Shown here: piece after piece, positions 1-8,097 of the stretch | Layout: each line of letters starts with the position of its first letter | Numbering within the stretch: position 1 is the first letter of the stretch | Source: a virus | Taxonomy: Duplodnaviria > Heunggongvirae > Uroviricota > Caudoviricetes | IMG/VR virus record: IMGVR_UViG_2687453449_000002 | Length of the DNA: 15,276 nt | Direction: 5' to 3' (one strand) | Made by a program: the position numbers and the translations under genes | Notes under the pieces: model-generated | Told to the model about the DNA's origin: nothing | What the model saw: only the letters and a program-made list of their open reading frames with translations | The model's database searches: none

Positions 1-822
1 TCAGCAGATATCCCGCCAGCACCAGCAACGCTTCGTAGAAGCCATTAAACACCAGTAGGCCAGTTCGTCATCCAGTGTTTTCCATGTCTGCTTGTATTCG
101 CGATGAATGGCAGCAATGACCGGGCTGATTTTTCCTGTTGAATTTTCAGTGTACTGTTGATTGGCTCTGGCGCGGGCGAGATCAACAACAGACGTGTATT
201 TTCCGGTTTCCTTGCGTTCACCTTCGCGACGTTTTTTCCAGATGCGCATCTCTGCCTGAATTTCGGGCCATTTAGCACCAGGAATACATTTATGCTTAAC
301 CCACCCAATGGCGTGCAACTTAAGCTCCGGATACATGGCGTTAACTTCTGGCATTTTCATCAACGCTTCAACGATATGTCCGTCGAATGTTGCCATGTCT
401 TCCTGCAACAATTCCTGTGCGCTAATAACCATATCAACGGTGATGTTTTCACATGTGTCGAACTTAACCATGACAGCGTTCTGTACTTCAGGGGCCAGCT
501 TGTCAAAAGTGACGTTCATCGGATCGGATTCAGTCTCAACCGGGACAAAAGAAGCAGACTCCTCATCCCAGCGGTTTTCCTGCATATATTCAGCATCCCA
601 TGAATCGAGGGCAGGGCGGGGTATGCCAGGTTTATCCTCGCAGACAATAAATTTATAAGCGCAGTCCTGAGCAGCCGGATAATGTTCCAGGAACTGCCAG
701 TGAAATTTTGCTCGAGCACGGCGTTCGTCGCCAGCTTCAATGGCTGTGGCTACAGCCACAGCGCCTTCTTCCCTTGTTGCCAGTTCGTCAGGAATAGCGG
801 CGCAAATAAAGACTTTACTCAT
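1..822 (-). CDS. Prophage protein of unknown function, last gene of the dicB operon in this window (ydfE position)
   Basis: Complete 273-aa ORF (stop at 1-3, ATG at 820-822) with GAGG about 10 nt upstream; follows ydfD on the same strand. Assigned by position only, not by sequence recognition. Confidence 0.65.
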   Translation of the reverse strand: MSKVFICAAIPDELATREEGAVAVATAIEAGDERRARAKFHWQFLEHYPAAQDCAYKFIVCEDKPGIPRPALDSWDAEYMQENRWDEESASFVPVETESDPMNVTFDKLAPEVQNAVMVKFDTCENITVDMVISAQELLQEDMATFDGHIVEALMKMPEVNAMYPELKLHAIGWVKHKCIPGAKWPEIQAEMRIWKKRREGERKETGKYTSVVDLARARANQQYTENSTGKISPVIAAIHREYKQTWKTLDDELAYWCLMASTKRCWCWRDIC

Positions 823-915
823 TTTGTTTTAACCTCATGACAGATTTAAGGATGAACAAATCCCTGCCATTGCTGGCATATAAGAATGAAACCGGATATT
901 TATTACGGAACTGTT

Positions 916-1107
916 TTAAAGACCTGCCGGGATTTCGATATTATCCTGGTGAATAACTTTATCGACCGGGTAACAGTTACCGGGAATTTTCTGTTCGGTT
1001 GCTGCAGTCATACACTCCTGCATTGTCCTGTGAACACTGTCTGCAATATCAACTGGCTCTCCGGAAACAAGAAAAACTGTCAGAACAAGCGCAAATGCTG
1101 AATTCAT
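916..1107 (-). CDS. ydfD: Small membrane/lysis protein YdfD-like (63 aa)
   Basis: Internal start MNSAFALVLTVFLVSGEP... within the 81-aa track ORF gives a 63-aa protein with a hydrophobic N-terminus; its ATG overlaps the dicB stop in an ATGA arrangement (1104-1107), indicating translational coupling. Confidence 0.6.
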   Translation of the reverse strand: MNSAFALVLTVFLVSGEPVDIADSVHRTMQECMTAATEQKIPGNCYPVDKVIHQDNIEIPAGL

Positions 1108-1292
1108 TGTGTACATCCTTTTGGCATCAGACGTAAACGAGCCAGCATTGAAACAATGCATATTTTATTTAATAGCTCCCGTTCTTGTTTTCTCTTGTTA
1201 ATGGCATCTTCAGTAAATACAGGGTTACTGATAGTGACACCAATTTCAAAACAACCTTCAGACGTATTAACGTTTGGTAATAACGTTTTCAT
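1104..1292 (-). CDS. dicB: Cell division inhibitor DicB (62 aa)
   Basis: Internal start of the 97-aa track ORF gives MKTLLPNVNTSEGCFEIGVTISNPVFTEDAINKRKQERELLNKICIVSMLARLRLMPKGCTQ, recognised as DicB; GAGGA Shine-Dalgarno 7 nt upstream; lies downstream of DicF as in Qin. Confidence 0.9.
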   Translation of the reverse strand: MKTLLPNVNTSEGCFEIGVTISNPVFTEDAINKRKQERELLNKICIVSMLARLRLMPKGCTQ

Positions 1293-1461
1293 TATCGCGT
1301 CCTCAACAATGAATTTTGTGATGCAGTGCCTGGTGCCTCCAGGTGACGTTAACCAGTTAACAATTAACGCCGGATACAGAGAATCCACCCATAACACTGT
1401 TTTTGGTTTTAACTGTTCCGCGTGCGCTTAGCCGCATTCACCGCATCACAAAATTCACTTT

Positions 1462-1519
1462 AAAAACGGCGGCAGAGCAGTCACGGAGTAAAACTGATAC
1501 CGCCAAACGTCACCAGAAA
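1462..1519 (-). ncRNA. dicF: DicF small regulatory RNA (ftsZ-targeting), with its intrinsic terminator
   Basis: Minus-strand sequence tttctggtgacgtttggcggtatcagttttactccgtgactgctctgccgccgttttt matches the remembered DicF sRNA, including a GC-rich 3' hairpin plus T-run; located between the upstream ORFs and dicB. Confidence 0.85.
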
Positions 1520-1794
1520 ATTGATAACAGAGGGCGTTGCAGCGGGGTTGTCACTTAAGCGTATGGTCAACCTGACAACTCGGTGTCCTCAACGGGGAAG
1601 GAATAACCCCGCCATACTTACCGCCGCGCCATTTCGCGGGTTGCCACAACCGGAAGCGCACGGTCGAATTAAATTTAACGACACCGTACAGTGAGACGAA
1701 CTTCGCCGTGCGCTTTCGTGTTGTGTGCCTGCTTTTAACCACGTCAGGCGAGGTGGTATCCTTCTTATCCCGAATAACCAAGAAGGAAATCTAT

Positions 1795-1995
1795 ATGACT
1801 AAAGAAGAATTTGTCTCTTATATTTTTGATAAAACGGTTGAAATGTATGCCGCTACTTACGGGTCCTGTAATCCTCTGAATAAACCAGAGGGGAAAGATG
1901 ATTTCGACAAAATTTACCGCTTCTTGGAGGACCGCTATATCAAAAGGTTAGAGGACGCAGGGATCAAATCCCCAGTGAAGTCACCATTGTCCTGA
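1795..1995 (+). CDS. Hypothetical 66-aa protein encoded antisense to the dicB operon (uncertain)
   Basis: ATG at 1795 preceded by AGAAGGAAAT Shine-Dalgarno (5-nt spacer); AT-rich codon usage; its 3' end overlaps the convergent 125-aa ORF by about 32 bp. Confidence 0.3.
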   Translation: MTKEEFVSYIFDKTVEMYAATYGSCNPLNKPEGKDDFDKIYRFLEDRYIKRLEDAGIKSPVKSPLS

Positions 1996-2341
1996 GAACT
2001 TGCAGGACGTCATGATCGTAACTTCCATCCAAACCGCGACGGCAAATTGCTTCTCGTATTACCGGAAGCAGTTCGCTGGAAATCTCGGTGCATATTTCAC
2101 CTGATAATACGCCTGGCTCAAGTGAGAATATTGGTGAACTTACGGTCTTGGTCTCGACAGTTTCAGAGTCAGTGCCAACATTATAAAGCTCAACGAAAGC
2201 GGTCTTGATTTTCCGGGCCAGATCTTTTGCTGGCTCGCTTGCAATATCTTTCCCGATTTCTCGCAGCACAGAATGCAATGTATGAGCTGCTGTTTTCTGT
2301 ACATCAGACGGTAAATCTTTAAATTCCATCGTCAGCCTCAT
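1964..2341 (-). CDS. Hypothetical 125-aa protein of the dicB operon (ydfB/ydfC position)
   Basis: ORF MRLTMEFKDLPSDVQ... whose ATG overlaps the ydfA stop (ATGA at 2339-2343); co-directional with dicA, ydfA and dicB. Confidence 0.6.
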   Translation of the reverse strand: MRLTMEFKDLPSDVQKTAAHTLHSVLREIGKDIASEPAKDLARKIKTAFVELYNVGTDSETVETKTVSSPIFSLEPGVLSGEICTEISSELLPVIREAICRRGLDGSYDHDVLQVLRTMVTSLGI

Positions 2342-2493
2342 CAGTCAGTGTTTCTGGCTAACCAGCAACGCGCGCCAGATTCGGTTTTAAACGTTTTGCT
2401 TTTGGTATATGTCATCGCGGTGAACGTACCGTCCTGGTTGGGGAACACGCCACATACCAGAGATTCGCTGTTGCCAAGATCGATAGTATCCAT
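2341..2493 (-). CDS. ydfA: Small protein YdfA-like (50 aa)
   Basis: Internal start MDTIDLGNSESLVCGVFPNQDGTFTAMTYTKSKTFKTESGARCWLARNTD with GAGG 6 nt upstream; first gene after dicA on the same strand, as in Qin. Confidence 0.7.
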   Translation of the reverse strand: MDTIDLGNSESLVCGVFPNQDGTFTAMTYTKSKTFKTESGARCWLARNTD

Positions 2494-2605
2494 GCTGACC
2501 TCATTTCCCCTTAACGCCGGGGTAGCGGAACTGTTTGCTGAGAACACCGTGCGGTGTCTTGATGGAAAGTAATTTAGAATAACCTAACATGAGAGGCAAG
2601 TGTTT

Positions 2606-2627
2606 TTTGTTAGATTGATCTAACAAA
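2606..2627. promoter_or_regulatory. Operator-like palindrome in the dicB-operon promoter region (putative DicA site)
   Basis: Perfect inverted repeat tttgttagat-tg-atctaacaaa sharing the core GTTAGA-N4-TCTAAC with two sites in the dicA/dicC intergenic region; lies between the dicA stop and the ydfA start. Confidence 0.6.
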
Positions 2628-2661
2628 AAGGGTGGGCGCAACTAATCACTTGAAAAGAATG

Positions 2662-3069
2662 TTATTTTATTGATTTATTTTTACGCGCTTTAAGCATTTC
2701 TTCGAAGAGTTTGTTGAAGTTTTCTACTCTTGCGCGCATTTCAGACAGCAAGGCTTCCTGCTCGGAAGATGGAAGAGCATCGAATAATTCGATCAATTCT
2801 TTGTGGTTGGGAGTTAGCTCTGTTTCCACATGAAGTTCTTGTGCAGGCACTGGTGCCTTGTCTTCGTCACCAAACATTAGCCATGTAGGTGAGCACTTCA
2901 GAGCATCCGCTAAAGCAAACAATCGTTTTCCGACTGGCTGGGTTTCGTCTCTTTCCCATTGTGAAATTGTGACGTGAGCAACTCCAGCGAGGCGCGCAGC
3001 TTCTCGTTGTGTTAAGCGTAATTCTTTTCGTCGCGCCAGAACTCGCTGGCCTAGGGTTCTTGTATCCAT
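2662..3069 (-). CDS. dicA: HTH-XRE repressor DicA (cI-like), 135 aa
   Basis: N-terminal HTH (LRLTQREAARLAGVAHVTISQWERDETQP), the C-terminal segment MRARVENFNKLFEEMLKAR remembered from DicA, correct length, and divergent from a cro-like dicC. Confidence 0.85.
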   Translation of the reverse strand: MDTRTLGQRVLARRKELRLTQREAARLAGVAHVTISQWERDETQPVGKRLFALADALKCSPTWLMFGDEDKAPVPAQELHVETELTPNHKELIELFDALPSSEQEALLSEMRARVENFNKLFEEMLKARKNKSIK

Positions 3070-3149
3070 AGTTAGGTAATTCTAATTTTTCTTGACTTAG
3101 GTATCCCGCGCACAATAATGTTAGAAAAGTCTAACAAGAGGGGGCTTTG
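3070..3149. promoter_or_regulatory. dicA/dicC divergent promoter-operator region
   Basis: Two palindromes GTTAGG-taat-TCTAAT (3071-3086) and GTTAGA-aaag-TCTAAC (3120-3135); rightward promoter candidate TTGACT (3092-3097), 16-17 bp spacer, AATAAT/ATAATG (3114-3120), the second palindrome overlapping the -10/+1; GAGGGGG Shine-Dalgarno before dicC. Confidence 0.65.
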
Positions 3150-3377
3150 ATGCTTAAAGTTGACGCAATTACTTTTTTTGGCAGCAAAACAAAGCTTGCC
3201 AATGCCGCAGGAGTGAGACTGGCAAGTGTTGCTGCTTGGGGGATACTGGTTCCTGAAGGTCGCGCGATGCGTCTACAGGAGGCATCTGGCGGGGAGCTTC
3301 AGTATGATCCCAAAGTTTATGACGAATATCGTAAGACGAAGCGGGCGGGGCGGTTGAACAATGAAAATCACTCCTGA
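3150..3377 (+). CDS. dicC: Cro-like regulator DicC (75 aa from the ATG; the track ORF begins 3 nt earlier at TTG)
   Basis: MLKVDAITFFGSKTKLANAAGVRLASVAAWG...RLQEASGGELQYDPKVYDEYRKTKRAGRLNNENHS, recognised as DicC-like; divergent from dicA; Shine-Dalgarno 6 nt upstream of the ATG at 3150. Confidence 0.8.
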   Translation: MLKVDAITFFGSKTKLANAAGVRLASVAAWGILVPEGRAMRLQEASGGELQYDPKVYDEYRKTKRAGRLNNENHS

Positions 3378-3882
3378 ACAGGCTCGTGAGGCTCTGGATG
3401 CCTGGATATGTCGACCAGGAATGACACAGGAGCAGGCGACGATATTAATCACTGAAGCATTCTGGGCTTTGAAAGAGCGCCCGAACATCGATGTTCAGCG
3501 TGTCACATATGAAGGTGGCGCGGTTGATCAGCGAGCGCTTAGCGTTAATCGAGTGAAGATATTCGAACGCTGGAAGGCTATCGACACCAGGGATAAGCGT
3601 GAAAAGTTCACAGCGCTAGTGCCTGCAATTATGGAGGCTATCCGGATTAGTGATTTCAGGTTGTATCGTGAGATCAGTGATGGAAAAAGTATTACGTACA
3701 TGATCGCCGGGTTAAATAAAGAATATGGCGATGTGGTGGAATCCGGACTGCTTTTTGCAGATCCTGCCGTTGTAGATCGTGAAACTGACGAACTTATAGA
3801 AAAAGCAATTGCTTTCAAGCTTGCGTATCGACAGCAATACCAACAAAAAGCTGGATGGAATTATGAGTCTTCTTTTTGCTGA
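3361..3882 (+). CDS. cII-position early protein, possibly YdaT-family (173 aa)
   Basis: ORF immediately after the cro-like gene, with its start overlapping the dicC 3' end; family assignment is by position and weak recollection only. Confidence 0.5.
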   Translation: MKITPEQAREALDAWICRPGMTQEQATILITEAFWALKERPNIDVQRVTYEGGAVDQRALSVNRVKIFERWKAIDTRDKREKFTALVPAIMEAIRISDFRLYREISDGKSITYMIAGLNKEYGDVVESGLLFADPAVVDRETDELIEKAIAFKLAYRQQYQQKAGWNYESSFC

Positions 3883-4828
3883 ACGCCCACTGGTTATAAA
3901 CACGCAGCTGGCAATGAAAATCGGCTTAAACGAAGCCATTGTTTTGCAACAACTGCACTACTGGTTGAGAGATACCAACTCCGGTATGGAATGTGATGGT
4001 GTTCGCTGGATTTATAACACAACGGAACAATGGCTGGAACAGTTCCCATTCTGGTCAGAGTCAACGTTAAAGCGCGCGTTTGCAAGTCTGAAAACGCTGG
4101 GGCTTTTGCGTTGTGAAAAGCTCAATAAATCAAAGCGCGATATGACCAATTTCTACACGATCAACTATGGGAGCGAGCTTTTAGATGGTGGCAAATTGAA
4201 CGAATCCATCGGTTCAAAATGCGCCGCTCCATCAGGTCAAAATGACACGATGGAAGAGGTCAAAATGAAACGCTCCATTGGTTCAAAACGATCCAATGTC
4301 ATCGGGTCAAAATGGCCTGATGATCTTACAGAGAATACAACAGAGATTACTACAGAGAATAAAAACACTTTTCGTCCGGAAGCTTCGCAACCGGACCCGC
4401 AGACGACTGAACAGGATTTTTTAACCCGGAACTCCGACGCGGTTGTGTTTAGTGCGAAAAAACGCCAGTGGGGTAGCAGGGAGGATTTGGCGTGTGCGCA
4501 GTGGATCTGGGGGCGGATCGTGGGTCTCTACGAACAGGCAGCCAGTGATGATGGCGAGATCATGCGACCAAAAGAGCCTAACTGGACTGCCTGGGCCAAT
4601 GACGTGCGCACAATGCGGATGCTGGATGGCAGAAGCCACAGACAAATTTGCGAAATGTTTGGTCGGGTTCAGCGAGATCCATTCTGGGTAAAAAACATCA
4701 TGAGCCCGTCAAAGCTCCGCGAAAAATGGGACGAACTGGTCATCCGCCTGGGACGTTCACCTGTACAGCGTTGTGTTAATCATATTTCTGAACCGGATAC
4801 AGAAATTCCGCCTGGTTTCAGAGGATAA
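3863..4828 (+). CDS. Phage replication initiation protein (lambda O / YdaU-like replisome organiser), 321 aa
   Basis: N-terminal domain resembling replisome-organiser HTH (LNEAIVLQQLHYWLRDT...STLKRAFASLKTLGLLR), a central linker encoded by iteron DNA, and a distinct C-terminal domain; start chosen at ATG 3863 (MSLLFAERP), overlapping the upstream stop by 20 nt. Confidence 0.7.
   Translation: MSLLFAERPLVINTQLAMKIGLNEAIVLQQLHYWLRDTNSGMECDGVRWIYNTTEQWLEQFPFWSESTLKRAFASLKTLGLLRCEKLNKSKRDMTNFYTINYGSELLDGGKLNESIGSKCAAPSGQNDTMEEVKMKRSIGSKRSNVIGSKWPDDLTENTTEITTENKNTFRPEASQPDPQTTEQDFLTRNSDAVVFSAKKRQWGSREDLACAQWIWGRIVGLYEQAASDDGEIMRPKEPNWTAWANDVRTMRMLDGRSHRQICEMFGRVQRDPFWVKNIMSPSKLREKWDELVIRLGRSPVQRCVNHISEPDTEIPPGFRG
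4204..4314 (+). repeat. Five direct iterons (putative prophage replication origin) inside the replication initiator gene
   Basis: Core GGT(T)CAAAA(T/C)G ending at 4221, 4244, 4267, 4290 and 4314 (23-24 bp periodicity), several with a TCCATC prefix; followed by an A-rich ACAGAGA-repeat stretch (4315-4365); encodes IGSK peptide repeats. Confidence 0.65.
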
Positions 4829-4868
4829 GTGTTGATTTCAGGTCATGAGGTAATTTTAAGGGGGAGTT

Positions 4869-5291
4869 GTGGCAAAAGTTTTTACACAAGAAGAGCGGGA
4901 AAAAATTAAAGGGCAGGTGGTGGAACTCGTGCGCCAGAGCGGTCGTGAGACGTTACGGCAACTGGAAGCTAAAACAGGTGCGACTAGATATCTGATGAGC
5001 GTTCTTGCCAGAGAGCTGGTAGCCAGTGGCGATGTATACAACTCCGGCTACGGGTTATTCCCGTCTGAACAGGCGCGTAAGGACTGGCAAAACGCCCGCA
5101 AAAAACTCTCGAGGGCAAAGGTGAAGAAACCTGCTGTGGTTGATCCGGACCTTATCTGGTCATTACCTGATGGAGAAATACGCCGCTACGACAGTCGTCT
5201 AAACATAATCTGTCGCGAGTGCCGGAAGAGCGAAGTTATGCAGCGTGTTCTGACGTTTTATCAGGGGAATTATCGGGAGGTGATGCTGTGA
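4869..5291 (+). CDS. Hypothetical 140-aa protein, possible winged-helix DNA-binding protein
   Basis: GTG start at 4869 preceded by AAGGGGGAG Shine-Dalgarno; coherent ORF MAKVFTQEEREKIKGQVVELVRQSGRETLRQLEAKTGATRYLMSVLARELV...; no family recognised. Confidence 0.55.
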   Translation: MAKVFTQEEREKIKGQVVELVRQSGRETLRQLEAKTGATRYLMSVLARELVASGDVYNSGYGLFPSEQARKDWQNARKKLSRAKVKKPAVVDPDLIWSLPDGEIRRYDSRLNIICRECRKSEVMQRVLTFYQGNYREVML

Positions 5292-5521
5292 GTACATCGG
5301 CTACCATTCTCGACATGTGCTGTGGCAGTCGCATGCTCTGGTTCGATAAGAATGACGAATGGTCGATATTTAGCGATATCAGGAAAGAGGAACATTCGCT
5401 ATGTGATGGACGTCACCCGATTATTAATCCCGACATTATAGCTGATTTTCGTGCGCTGCCGTGGTTGTCTGCTTTGCATCAAAAGCAGACATTACCAGAT
5501 TTAGACATCTGTTTCCGATAG
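5288..5521 (+). CDS. Short ORF (77 aa from GTG 5288) with a SAM-methyltransferase motif-I-like segment; possible gene fragment
   Basis: GTGA start/stop overlap with the 140-aa ORF; contains [15 protein letters not shown], resembling the glycine-rich SAM-binding motif; too short for a complete methyltransferase. Confidence 0.3.
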
Positions 5522-5553
5522 CCCGTTCTGATGCTACACTTTTTGCTATTTTC

Positions 5554-6240
5554 ATGAACCTCATAAACACATTTATGACTGTTGCTGATTTCAAACGCCC
5601 CAAATTGGAGCTCCCAAACGGGGCAAAAAAACTATTACTGCACTCTTGCTGTGCTCCATGTTCCGGTGAAGTGATGGAGGCGCTTCAGGCCTCGGGAATC
5701 GACTACACCATCTTTTTCTACAACCCGAACATTCATCCTCAGAAAGAGTATTTAATTCGTAAGGATGAGAATATTCGCTTTGCTAAACAACACGGCGTGC
5801 CATTTATTGATGCTGATTACGACACAGACAACTGGTTTGAGCGAGCCAAAGGAATGGAATGGGAGCCTGAACGAGGGATCCGTTGTACCATGTGTTTTGA
5901 CATGCGTTTTGAGCGGACTGCGCTGTATGCCGCTGAAAATGGTTTCAGTGTGATCAGTAGCTCACTGGGCATTTCACGCTGGAAAAATATGCAGCAGGTT
6001 AACGACTGTGGACGGCGAGCCGTCGCGTATTATCCGGGCATGGTGTACTGGGATTATAACTGGCGAAAGCAGGGCGGCTCTTCCCGCATGATTGAAATCA
6101 GCAAGCGCGAACAATTCTATCAGCAGGAATATTGTGGCTGCGTGTATTCACTGCGCGATACCAATCTACACCGCAAATCTCAGGGACGCCCTCTAATCAA
6201 AATTGGTCAACTCCACTACGGTAAAGAAGGCCAGGAATGA
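5554..6240 (+). CDS. queH: QueH-family (DUF208) epoxyqueuosine reductase-like protein; start uncertain (GTG 5461, ATG 5554 or ATG 5575)
   Basis: Hallmark [13 protein letters not shown] near the N-terminus and EYCGCVYS near the C-terminus, consistent with the cysteine motifs of DUF208/QueH as remembered; about 220-260 aa; no clear Shine-Dalgarno at any candidate start. Confidence 0.65.
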
Positions 6241-6320
6241 TTTTATATTATGCCAACGGAGCGTAGCAGTGTTTCTATATATAGTACGCCTACCTTAATT
6301 TTCAAATAATCATGATTAAT

Positions 6321-6353
6321 GAGCAGGTCATCAGTGCAAGCAATGACCTGCTC
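6321..6353 (+). terminator. Hairpin downstream of the queH-like gene (possible terminator or processing site)
   Basis: 11-bp perfect stem gagcaggtcat / atgacctgctc with an 11-nt loop, followed by a weak T-containing tail (atcttgttg). Confidence 0.4.
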
Positions 6354-6687
6354 ATCTTGTTGAAATTAGAGGAAATCTTGCAGCCATGATATGGCTTAAA
6401 ATAACGTTTGATTATTTTACCTGCTGTTTGTCCCTGGTTTAAAGTCGGTTGTCTGATTTGATTACGCGCAACTGACGCTTACGTATTGAAGTAACGAGCA
6501 CGAAGACACATATTTATCAGTGCCTGTATACGTCAAGAGCAGGAGATTTATGTGCTGGTTCTCAAATGCACGCTGGCTATTGTGGCTGTAATGGCAATTT
6601 ATTGTCTTGTTATTGTTCTTATGGATCACCTTTCTGATTGATTTCATATTGGAGAGGTAACGGTAGTTAAGTAGAATGGCTGCGGGT

Positions 6688-6852
6688 GCTTGAGGCTATC
6701 TGCCTCGGGCATGAACACCAACGGCAGATAGAGAAAAGCCCCAGTTAACATTACGCGTCCTGCAAGACGCTTAACATTAATCTGAGGCCAATTTCATGCT
6801 AGACACATGTAGGTTAGCCTCTTACGTGCCGAAAGGCAAGGAGAAGCAGGCT
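6688..6852 (+). promoter_or_regulatory. hok mRNA 5' leader with tac/ucb-like elements and an in-frame mok-like upstream start (6796)
   Basis: Sequence ggtgcttgaggctatctgcctc...ggcagatagagaaaagcccc...agcctcttac...gcaaggagaag resembles the conserved structured leader of hok-family mRNAs. Confidence 0.5.
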
Positions 6853-7008
6853 ATGAAGCAGCAAAAGGCGATGTTAATCGCCCTGATCGTCATCTGTTTA
6901 ACCGTCATAGTGACGGCACTGGTAACGAGGAAAGACCTCTGCGAGGTACGAATCCGAACCGGCCAGACGGAGGTCGCTGTCTTCACAGCTTACGAACCTG
7001 AGGAGTAA
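6853..7008 (+). CDS. hokD: Hok-family type I toxin (51 aa), HokD/RelF-like
   Basis: MKQQKAMLIALIVICLTVIVTALVTRKDLCEVRIRTGQTEVAVFTAYEPEE: single transmembrane helix and conserved Hok C-terminus; AAGGAGAAG Shine-Dalgarno upstream. Confidence 0.9.
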   Translation: MKQQKAMLIALIVICLTVIVTALVTRKDLCEVRIRTGQTEVAVFTAYEPEE

Positions 7009-7076
7009 GAGACCCGGCGAGGGAGAAATCCCTCGCCACCTCTGATGTGGCAGGCATCCTCAACGCACTCGCACTT

Positions 7077-7100
7077 AACCCGCTTCGGCGGGTTTTTGTT
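7077..7100 (+). terminator. Rho-independent terminator at the hok mRNA 3' end
   Basis: Stem aacccgc / gcgggtt with ttcg loop, followed by tttttgtttttatttt; preceded by a fold-back-like segment (catcctcaacgcac) partly complementary to the 5' leader. Confidence 0.8.
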
Positions 7101-7224
7101 TTTATTTTCAACGCGTTTGAAGTTCTGGACGGTGCCGGAATAGAATCAAAAATACTTAAGTAGCGCGCAGGGATAAGAGGGATGGTCCCTTAAAGGGGAG
7201 AGCTAATTATCCGGAAGGATTCTG

Positions 7225-7476
7225 ATGATGAACATCGAAGAACTGCGTAAAAATTTTTGTGAAGATGGCCTCTATGCTGTGTGCGTTGAAAATGGAAATC
7301 TTGTTAGTCATTACCGCATTATGTGTTTGCGAAAGAATGGGGCTGCGTTAATTAATTTTGTGGATGGTCGAGTGACAGACGGATTTATCTTGCGCGAAGG
7401 TGAGTTTGTCACTTCATTACAGGCACTGAAAGAGATCGGAATAAAAGCAGGCTTTTCAGCTTTTGCAGAAGAATAA
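7225..7476 (+). CDS. rem: Rem-like small prophage protein (83 aa)
   Basis: MMNIEELRKNFCEDGLYAVCVENGNLVSHYRIMCLRKNGAALINFVDG...; GGAAGGA Shine-Dalgarno; lies directly downstream of hok as rem does relative to hokD in Qin. Confidence 0.7.
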   Translation: MMNIEELRKNFCEDGLYAVCVENGNLVSHYRIMCLRKNGAALINFVDGRVTDGFILREGEFVTSLQALKEIGIKAGFSAFAEE

Positions 7477-7542
7477 ACTCATCTACAATCTTGCGCGGGG
7501 CTGAACTCCCGCTGAGTAACACCGTGCCACCGGAGAAAACCG

Positions 7543-7821
7543 ATGGCACGCAACGTAAAATATTACAATTCTGATAATTCGCCCGTTCTTGTCTGCACGC
7601 ACGAGCGGTATTCTCACGCATTCAAGTCTGAATGGTTCCAACACCCTCCATGCACTGAAGAGCAGGCTGAATGGATAATTCAGTGTTACCGCAGGCGCGG
7701 ATACGAGGTTAAGAAAGCCCTTAGTCTCGACTACCGTCACTGGATAATCTCAGTCAGATTGCCTTACTCCGAACGCCCACCGCGTCCGTCCCGTACATTC
7801 CAGCAACGCATCTGGAGGTAA
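7543..7821 (+). CDS. Hypothetical 92-aa protein; the C-terminal third may be out-of-context sequence at a deletion junction
   Basis: ATG preceded by GGAG; N-terminal 70 aa look protein-like (MARNVKYYNSDNSPVLVCTHERYSHAFKSEWFQHPPCTEEQAEWIIQCYRRRGYEV...), the tail is Pro/Arg-rich; same frame as the downstream lom fragment, separated from it by one stop. Confidence 0.4.
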   Translation: MARNVKYYNSDNSPVLVCTHERYSHAFKSEWFQHPPCTEEQAEWIIQCYRRRGYEVKKALSLDYRHWIISVRLPYSERPPRPSRTFQQRIWR

Positions 7822-8097
7822 CGTGCGGGTATTACTTCGACCTGTTCTGGTATGGCTTACAGCCGTGTGTCGACCTTCTCCGGGGATTATCTCCGCGTAA
7901 CTGACAACAAGGGGAAAACGCACGATGTGCTGACCGGAAGTGATGACGGTCGCCACAGCAACACGTCTCTGGCGTGGGGGGCTGGCGTGCAGTTTAACCC
8001 GACCGAATCCGTGGCCATTGACCTTGCTTATGAAGGTTCCGGCAGTGGTGACTGGCGCACTGACGGTTTCATCGTGGGTGTCGGTTATAAATTCTGA
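7822..8097 (+). pseudogene. lom: lom (Ail/Lom outer-membrane protein) 3' fragment lacking the N-terminal half
   Basis: Encodes ...SLAWGAGVQFNPTESVAIDLAYEGSGSGDWRTDGFIVGVGYKF, matching the C-terminal beta-strands of Lom/Ail/PagC; no signal peptide or N-terminal barrel portion upstream. Confidence 0.7.

Follow-up and report, generated by a model that had tools for sequence, protein, structure and literature searches.

A queH gene carried as cargo by lambdoid prophages of Escherichia coli, a probable moron for cobalamin-independent queuosine maturation

Introduction

QueH catalyses the last step of queuosine (Q) synthesis, the conversion of epoxyqueuosine (oQ) to Q at position 34 of tRNA, and does so with iron-sulfur chemistry and not with cobalamin (PMC5372724; PMC13443448). 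Escherichia coli possesses the full Q pathway (PMC5372724), and the oQ-to-Q step in this species is described as cobamide-dependent in the title of Frey et al. (1988), listed among the references of PMC4646009. Staphylococcus aureus has both QueG and QueH, which has been interpreted as an adaptation to variation in the supply of cofactors (PMC13443448). In a survey of phage queuosine genes, no homologues of QueA, QueG or QueH were found in the viruses analysed (PMC6884629). The subject of this paper is a queH gene located in a 15,276-nucleotide stretch of DNA from a virus of the class Caudoviricetes (IMG/VR record IMGVR_UViG_2687453449_000002), and this whole stretch is called the window throughout. 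The gene belongs to the early region of a lambdoid prophage and is probably a moron, that is, a gene expressed from an otherwise repressed prophage.

Several described systems resemble this locus in part. QueH of Thermotoga maritima (Protein Data Bank, PDB, entries 7lc5, 7lc7 and 9deu) has the same full-length domain, the CCAPx, CxxC and CGC motifs, the predicted fold and a similar length; the gene in the window differs in being a prophage gene of lambdoid phages in a host with QueG, and its product has Cys29 where the T. maritima protein has Asp13. QueG has the same predicted reaction and the same substrate, and E. coli B possesses both genes, but QueG is non-homologous, uses a cobalamin cofactor and is encoded by a core chromosomal gene, not by phage cargo. 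The morons of lambdoid phages, cargo genes that are expressed autonomously and placed between backbone genes, are alike in being discrete insertions absent from a collinear relative, with varied flanks and in a known cargo slot; at the queH locus a conserved promoter-like element and a downstream hairpin would be the putative promoter and terminator. The cargo here is a housekeeping-type tRNA modification enzyme and not a virulence, exclusion or defence factor.

The 7-deazaguanine or preQ0 genes of phages (FolE, QueD, QueE, QueC and DpdA) come from the same biosynthetic pathway family (PMC6884629); they act early in the pathway and the phage DNA is what is modified, whereas the substrate of QueH, at the last step, is oQ already bound to tRNA. 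A Dpd-type system would combine a DpdA/TGT-family transglycosylase with preQ0 synthesis genes in one phage; no DpdA-type gene is annotated beside queH in the cultured Escherichia phage HannyBb or found among the open reading frames (ORFs) of the window. The 16S rRNA methyltransferase M.EcoPA8orf6770P of a Shiga toxin (Stx) prophage (PMC10810198) is likewise a lambdoid-prophage enzyme that modifies an RNA of host translation, but its chemistry and its RNA target are different and its effect on induction has been shown experimentally.

Results and Discussion

Identity and extent of the queH gene

The coding sequence of 221 codons (table 1) is a genuine and complete QueH-family gene. Its product matches the Pfam family PF02677 (QueH, formerly DUF208; COG1636) over profile positions 1-174 of 175 with a score of 219.5 bits (E-value, E, 4.3e-65), where the gathering score is 23.5 bits, and QueH is the sole domain that Pfam finds in it. 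A first-pass annotation of the window, made from the letters alone, had recognised the cysteine signatures of QueH in an ORF ending at 6240. That ORF is present with its stop at 6240, it contains the signature EYCGCVYS, and the full-length profile match bears out the assignment. By sequence search the protein matches T. maritima QueH (PDB 7lc5) with E 7.9e-22 over 177 residues, and six cysteines, C25, C26, C104, C107, C187 and C189, are shared between the two in the alignment, which also places C29 of the prophage protein opposite D13 of the T. maritima protein. These residues belong to the motifs CCxP[C/D], CxxC and CGC, which we take to be the ligands of the Fe-S cluster and of an adjacent metal. 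The six shared cysteines and C29 are invariant across 28 aligned homologues, and every residue that is invariant in those homologues is kept in the window QueH. The PDB includes structures of the C9S and D13N (9dco) mutants of T. maritima QueH, which indicates that these two positions have been studied functionally.

The predicted structure leads to the same family. When the AlphaFold2 (AF2) model of the protein was compared with known structures, the top five Foldseek matches were all QueH structures (7lc7, 7lc5, 9d86, 9deu and 9dco; E 2e-9 to 9e-8), with template modelling (TM) scores of 0.76-0.78 normalised to the target, and the next matches were other adenine-nucleotide alpha-hydrolase-like folds with E >1e-5. 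Both the profile search with its aligned cysteines and the comparison with characterised QueH structures, proposed in the first-pass annotation as ways of checking it, thus turned out in favour of QueH. The NCBIfam collection gave no match for QueH, nor for the DUF977 protein or the methyltransferase fragment encoded upstream of it.

The start of the gene is the ATG at 5575, which gives the N-terminus MTVADFKR. The same start is used in RefSeq and in homologues, and from residue 1 onward the protein aligns with the one of E. albertii (prophage context) and with the chromosomally encoded QueH of Scandinavium, Kluyvera and Enterobacter. The extent of 5461-6240 that had been given earlier for the gene should therefore be shortened. 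The GTG at 5461 was rejected as a start; it merely opens the mechanically longest ORF and overlaps both the methyltransferase remnant and the promoter-like element described below. In the HannyBb genome the QueH ORF (locus L002, 8755-9441) is labelled 'hypothetical protein' and is called from an upstream ATG that corresponds to position 5554 of the window.

Among bacterial proteins, identity amounts to 80-92% with the queH products of Scandinavium, Kluyvera, Enterobacter, Erwinia, Gibbsiella, Photorhabdus, Providencia, Proteus and Serratia. The genes of Scandinavium and Enterobacter quasihormaechei, the two that were verified, lie among ordinary metabolic neighbours in a non-phage setting. The prophage QueH is predicted to reduce oQ on tRNA without cobalamin, and the one computational pointer to this is its content of Pfam domains, which is QueH alone.

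The identity of the gene as such is already known: QueH is a known family and RefSeq gives the gene its correct name. In the PHROGs collection the family of this protein is phrog_3217, 'unknown function', and its profile begins at residue 34, past the CCAPC motif, which suggests that starts have been mis-called. This label, together with the survey of phage queuosine genes in which QueH does not appear, indicates that phage annotation pipelines miss queH. The searchable literature yielded no paper that describes queH as a cargo gene in lambdoid prophages of E. coli.

Insertion anatomy and prophage context

The gene had been proposed to be acquired prophage cargo, and comparison with related loci substantiates this. 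Collinearity of the phage PhiR42_1 with the window extends to 5454, which falls within the methyltransferase gene, and resumes at 6664, and queH is absent from the part between these points; in addition, all E. coli copies examined lie in lambdoid prophage DNA. The loci of O157:H7 (Z1504), ST95-32 and E. albertii align with 5460-6246 at ~93% (blastn), and their flanks differ; 5460-6246 is also all that the commonest E. coli allele has in common with the window. In other lineages the left boundary of the module is at 5452, 5505 or 5527, the Rac-like prophage of SCU-109 (L005) is homologous over 5527-6652, and in three loci (L003, L004 and L007) the sequence passes from window position 6246 straight to 6619. 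The reproducible boundaries across lineages argue for a mobile unit that consists of ~50-120 bp of 5′ flank and the coding sequence, to which ~400 bp more of 3′ flank are added in the window. Judged from these alignments, the queH module of this lineage is inserted into a backbone methyltransferase gene and has replaced the 3′ part of that gene.

The flanks of a possible donor were sought in 80 bacterial genomes, and outside Escherichia only the coding sequence aligns, plus at most ~43 bp upstream of it (Kluyvera). In the O157:H7 locus Z1504 (L003, 9899-11909) a DNA cytosine methyltransferase and a restriction endonuclease of the NgoMIV family are encoded directly downstream of queH. With this restriction-modification cargo in the same place, the interval from the DUF977 gene to the hok/nin region is evidently a general cargo slot.

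Over positions 55-7852 the window matches the Qin-type prophage of E. coli B REL606 with 100% identity, and further strains, E. coli C and ATCC 8739 among them, share the 1.7 kb around queH, likewise at 100%. In REL606 the three genes concerned are named 'DUF977 family protein', an incomplete methyltransferase and 'epoxyqueuosine reductase QueH' in RefSeq; the same genome has an intact queG. The Qin prophage of K-12 has ydfX-ydfW-flxA-ydfV-relB-relE in the interval between dicC and hokD instead, and the statement that K-12 Qin carries relBE and flxA at this place is hence correct. The same early region is found at ~99% identity in HannyBb, a cultured siphovirus of 45 kb. Directly upstream of queH and in the same orientation lie cro-like, cII/YdaT-like, O-like and DUF977 genes.

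Identity to both REL606 and HannyBb ends abruptly at 7852, and positions 1-54 have no REL606 match either. Past 7852 comes a fragment resembling Lom (7852-8097), after which lie genes for tail fibre, tail-fibre assembly and the pin invertase, followed by ydfJ. The break in identity, with the Q, lysis and head genes missing, indicates that the prophage of the window is internally deleted and defective.

Distribution and selection

A megablast search with a 779-base queH segment against 5426 complete E. coli genomes, which gives a lower bound for diverged alleles, detected queH in at least 995 of them (~18%), with coverage of at least 80% in 983 of the 995. Identity was at least 99% in 72 of these genomes, 90-95% in 880 and 80-90% in 41. 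Among the matches listed, all are annotated as QueH in RefSeq. In IMG/VR, 189 viral contig stretches encode a relative of QueH, and the 80 of the 189 that were kept are 96-100% identical. The expectation that a QueH homologue in a lambdoid early operon would be unusual is contradicted by these counts and by the RefSeq names.

Intactness and the ratio of nonsynonymous to synonymous substitution rates (dN/dS) were determined for 85 phage or prophage copies, the latter relative to the window allele. Every copy is intact, 84 with 221 amino acids and one with 222, and the 23 nucleotide alleles among them encode only 7 protein variants. For the 20 alleles with an amino acid change dN/dS is 0.05-0.08, and for one allele with synonymous changes only it is 0, while dS between the window allele and the other phage-borne alleles reaches 0.29. 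The gene is under strong purifying selection.

In three E. coli genomes that were examined, queH is preceded by a DUF977 gene and the locus belongs to a lambdoid prophage, and the backbones and integration sites of these prophages differ: they are O157:H7 Z1504, ST95-32, where the prophage adjoins tRNA-Ser/mtfA, and SCU-109, a Rac-like prophage with recE and kilR. The module is present in at least three prophage backgrounds in addition to HannyBb, which is the only cultured phage with a close queH copy among 50,697 phage records. In 80 of the 85 loci from phages or prophages a homologue of DUF977 precedes queH at a distance of 192-1392 bp, and of the five loci that do not have it upstream the one examined (L109) is a degraded prophage. 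This locus (positions 1-7255, IMG/VR UViG_2627854008_000011) contains an integrase gene, transposases of insertion sequences (IS), intact queH, mok/hok, NinB and a further IS; three other loci (L112, L114 and L123) appear similar. The retention of an intact queH in such a degraded remnant fits selection at the level of the host.

Among themselves the phage-borne alleles share 96-100% identity, and with chromosomal copies their identity does not exceed 92%. This similarity of the phage alleles, together with the shared 5′ flank, fits a single capture that was followed by recombinational spread.

Two observations concern the reading of database matches. In NZ_CP100530.1 (strain LH10-b-1, 2411330-2413807) an IS1A splits the match to window positions 4800-6500 at or near queH, and this may be a disrupted copy. 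Homologues of queH are also present in CAKLQH020000001.1, CAKLQF020000001.1 and OR844989.1. The records named 'Acinetobacter phage MD-2021a' are 328-378 kb long and 'Staphylococcus phage SA 1306 Kay' is 282 kb long; these sizes suggest fragments of bacterial chromosomes, so that QueH matches in phage databases need care.

The promoter-like element

An extended -10 promoter-like element lies a short distance upstream of the start codon (table 1). When the 150 bp upstream of the start were aligned for 15 distinct prophage variants and three chromosomal relatives, TGCTACACT or TGCTACAAT (TGCTACA[C/A]T) was found at -43/-44 and forms a constant block while its surroundings diverge. The element is invariant in all 15 distinct prophage upstream sequences. 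In Scandinavium, Kluyvera, E. quasihormaechei and Symbiopectobacterium the same motif precedes chromosomal queH at the same distance within otherwise unalignable sequence, and related TAnAnT hexamers are visible upstream of queH in several other Enterobacterales. These features make TGCTACACT a candidate for the native promoter of the gene, which could have been carried along at capture and would allow expression from the repressed prophage.

Proposed role and alternative explanations

Taken together, the data make it likely that queH is a functional moron, captured from a chromosome, which gives lysogens cobalamin-independent maturation of oQ to Q. E. coli is not known to synthesise cobalamin de novo. 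According to this proposal, an ancestor of these lambdoid phages would have taken queH with its extended -10 promoter from an enterobacterial chromosome, and the gene would now occupy, as a moron, the cargo slot that has the DUF977/lygF gene on one side and the hok/sok-nin region on the other, having later spread by recombination among Qin-type, Rac-type and other lambdoid prophages of Escherichia. The enzyme would reduce oQ to Q at position 34 of tRNA-Asp, tRNA-Asn, tRNA-His and tRNA-Tyr, and in a lysogen it would act beside the B12-dependent QueG of the host, so that the last step of Q synthesis would become independent of corrinoid supply.

Within this proposal, the fitness benefit when B12 is scarce is an argument from knowledge of the pathway, and the single capture one from the shared 5′ flank and the similarity of alleles. 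Several points weigh against the proposal or against parts of it. A generic sigma-70 scan called no promoter upstream of queH, TGCTACACT having been missed because its -35 region is poor, and no clear Shine-Dalgarno sequence is present upstream of the start. The hairpin downstream of the gene is terminator-like, but its U tract is weak and it lies outside the module of the commonest allele. The confidence of the AF2 model is moderate (mean predicted local distance difference test, pLDDT, 71.5) and falls below 50 in the region of the CGC motif. Finally, position 29 is Cys here and Asp in the only QueH whose structure is solved, and the exact metal site may therefore differ.

The gene might alternatively be kept mainly for the sake of the phage. 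Induced from the early promoter, QueH would convert oQ-tRNA to Q-tRNA in lytic growth, and the phage could profit from tuned decoding of NAU/NAC codons in its genes or from altered recognition of tRNA by anticodon-directed nucleases or other defences. The location of queH in the early-right operon, in the same orientation as the upstream genes and with no terminator-like site between them and queH, agrees with this, as does its retention in the viable cultured phage HannyBb. The slot is shared with exclusion and defence cargo (the Ren-like protein and the restriction-modification pair of Z1504), and there is a precedent in a lambdoid prophage whose RNA methyltransferase affects induction (PMC10810198). 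However, intact queH is also kept by degraded prophages that are unable to grow lytically, namely that of the window and the remnants with integrase, IS, queH, hok and NinB, and the persistence of the gene in such non-inducible remnants agrees better with host-level selection. Moreover, the conserved native promoter-like element suggests that expression is independent of the lytic programme, and no report that oQ and Q differ functionally in decoding or nuclease sensitivity was retrieved from the literature. A role mainly in phage growth is for these reasons considered unlikely. That queH is a neutral passenger, hitch-hiking or decaying in a cryptic prophage, would be in keeping with the defective state of the window prophage, with the remnant nature of the adjacent methyltransferase and with a host that already has queG. 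This explanation is contradicted by the selection data, that is, the intactness of all 85 copies and the low dN/dS at the dS values reached; the residues invariant among homologues are all kept and coverage is high in nearly all positive genomes, which leaves a neutral passenger very improbable.

The first-pass annotation had also considered a degraded nucleic-acid-modification module, and a related explanation would have QueH work with the neighbouring methyltransferase or act on 7-deazaguanine bases in phage DNA. A methyltransferase fragment does lie immediately upstream of queH, and phages with 7-deazaguanine modifications of their DNA exist (PMC6884629). The methyltransferase is, however, part of the phage backbone; it is longer in a phage that has no queH, and the common allele of queH lacks such a neighbour, so the idea of a degraded module does not stand. 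In annotation, which is the level of this comparison, no DpdA/TGT, QueA, QueC, QueD, QueE or FolE is recorded in the complete HannyBb genome, and none was seen among the ORFs of the window. The protein is 86-92% identical to those of chromosomal queH genes of Enterobacterales, including the two verified as non-phage, and the survey of phage 7-deazaguanine systems found no QueH (PMC6884629). A part in nucleic acid modification is thus the least probable of the explanations considered, slightly below the neutral passenger. The preferred reading remains the captured moron that serves queuosine maturation in lysogens.

A wider question is why such a gene would be carried for as long as a dS of up to 0.29 between phage-borne alleles suggests. 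It is conceivable, though we would put it forward with some doubt, that lambdoid phages have long carried a host-derived tRNA-maturation enzyme because of a specific benefit to the phage or to the lysogen. If this were true, the queuosine status of about one fifth of E. coli strains could be freed from the corrinoid supply of the gut, or the decoding or defence sensitivity of the four Q-tRNAs could be shifted during infection; queH would be the first late-step queuosine tRNA enzyme known as a phage auxiliary gene, and E. coli B and BL21 would differ from K-12 in oQ/Q chemistry. In any case the locus shows clearly how an enzyme of tRNA modification with a housekeeping role has become mobile phage cargo. 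About 18% of complete E. coli genomes, among them those of the laboratory and production strains E. coli B, REL606, C and ATCC 8739, would be able to reach queuosine by a route that needs no B12, and K-12 would be without it. This is relevant to work in the B lineage, such as making oQ-tRNA, studying QueG or comparing tRNA modification between strains or in B12-free media, and it connects prophage content with corrinoid availability and with the gut's Q/queuine economy in a way that is simple to test.

Neighbouring features

The features of the window around queH are collected in table 1.

Table 1. Positions of queH and of neighbouring features in the window
Feature	Positions	Strand	Remarks
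O-like replication gene	3809-4828	+	phrog_391
DUF977 / lygF ('Ren-like exclusion protein') gene	4869-5291	+	140 amino acids; PF06163, E 4.7e-29; phrog_142, E 7e-47
DNA-methyltransferase remnant	5288-5521	+	77 amino acids; phrog_954 positions 50-108 of 229, E 1.4e-24
Core queH module	5455-6246 (about)	+	~115 bp of 5′ flank, coding sequence and 6 bp past the stop; common to the prevalent E. coli allele
Extended -10 promoter-like element TGCTACACT	5532-5540	+	43 nucleotides upstream of ATG 5575
queH coding sequence	5575-6240	+	221 amino acids; predicted tRNA epoxyqueuosine(34) reductase, cobalamin-independent Fe-S type; RefSeq WP_021568046.1
AT-rich 3′ flank	6247-6652	+	GC 0.38-0.41; in this lineage and the Rac-like SCU-109 prophage; not in the common allele
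Stem-loop, perfect 13 bp	6319-6355	+	79 nucleotides past the queH stop; -23.1 kcal/mol, z -3.3 against shuffles
sok/hokD toxin-antitoxin module	6684-7008	+	sok RF01794, 115 bits (6684-6858); hokD annotated in REL606

The DUF977 gene belongs to the phage backbone and usually adjoins the queH module on the left; in phage records its product is named LygF or 'Ren-like exclusion protein'. In a single-sequence AF2 model the N-terminal ~80 residues form a helix-strand-helix-helix-hairpin arrangement (residues ~7-64, pLDDT 80-94) and the C-terminal half is disordered. A sequence search of the protein against the PDB gave no match, and its fold matches are weak only (E ~1e-2), to the winged-helix regulators MntR, MarR and GntR. 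The model of the N-terminal part is thus consistent with the earlier description of this ORF as a possible winged-helix protein.

The 77-amino acid ORF between the DUF977 gene and queH had been taken for a fragment of a methyltransferase gene, which agrees with its partial phrog_954 match and with its label in RefSeq, where it is a pseudogene, 'methyltransferase, incomplete, missing C-terminus'. Homology to the longer gene stops at 5454, and from there the ORF runs into the inserted module until its stop codon at 5519-5521.

On the right-hand side, the AT-rich 3′ flank contains a minus-strand ORF of 61 amino acids (6462-6647) that has no Pfam or PHROG match. A terminator scan made no call at the 6319-6355 hairpin and found nothing directly flanking queH. 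The sok/hokD module is the right-hand backbone neighbour of queH. At 1467-1518 on the minus strand the small RNA DicF was detected (Rfam, 72.5 bits), and DicF and sok are typical features of Qin.

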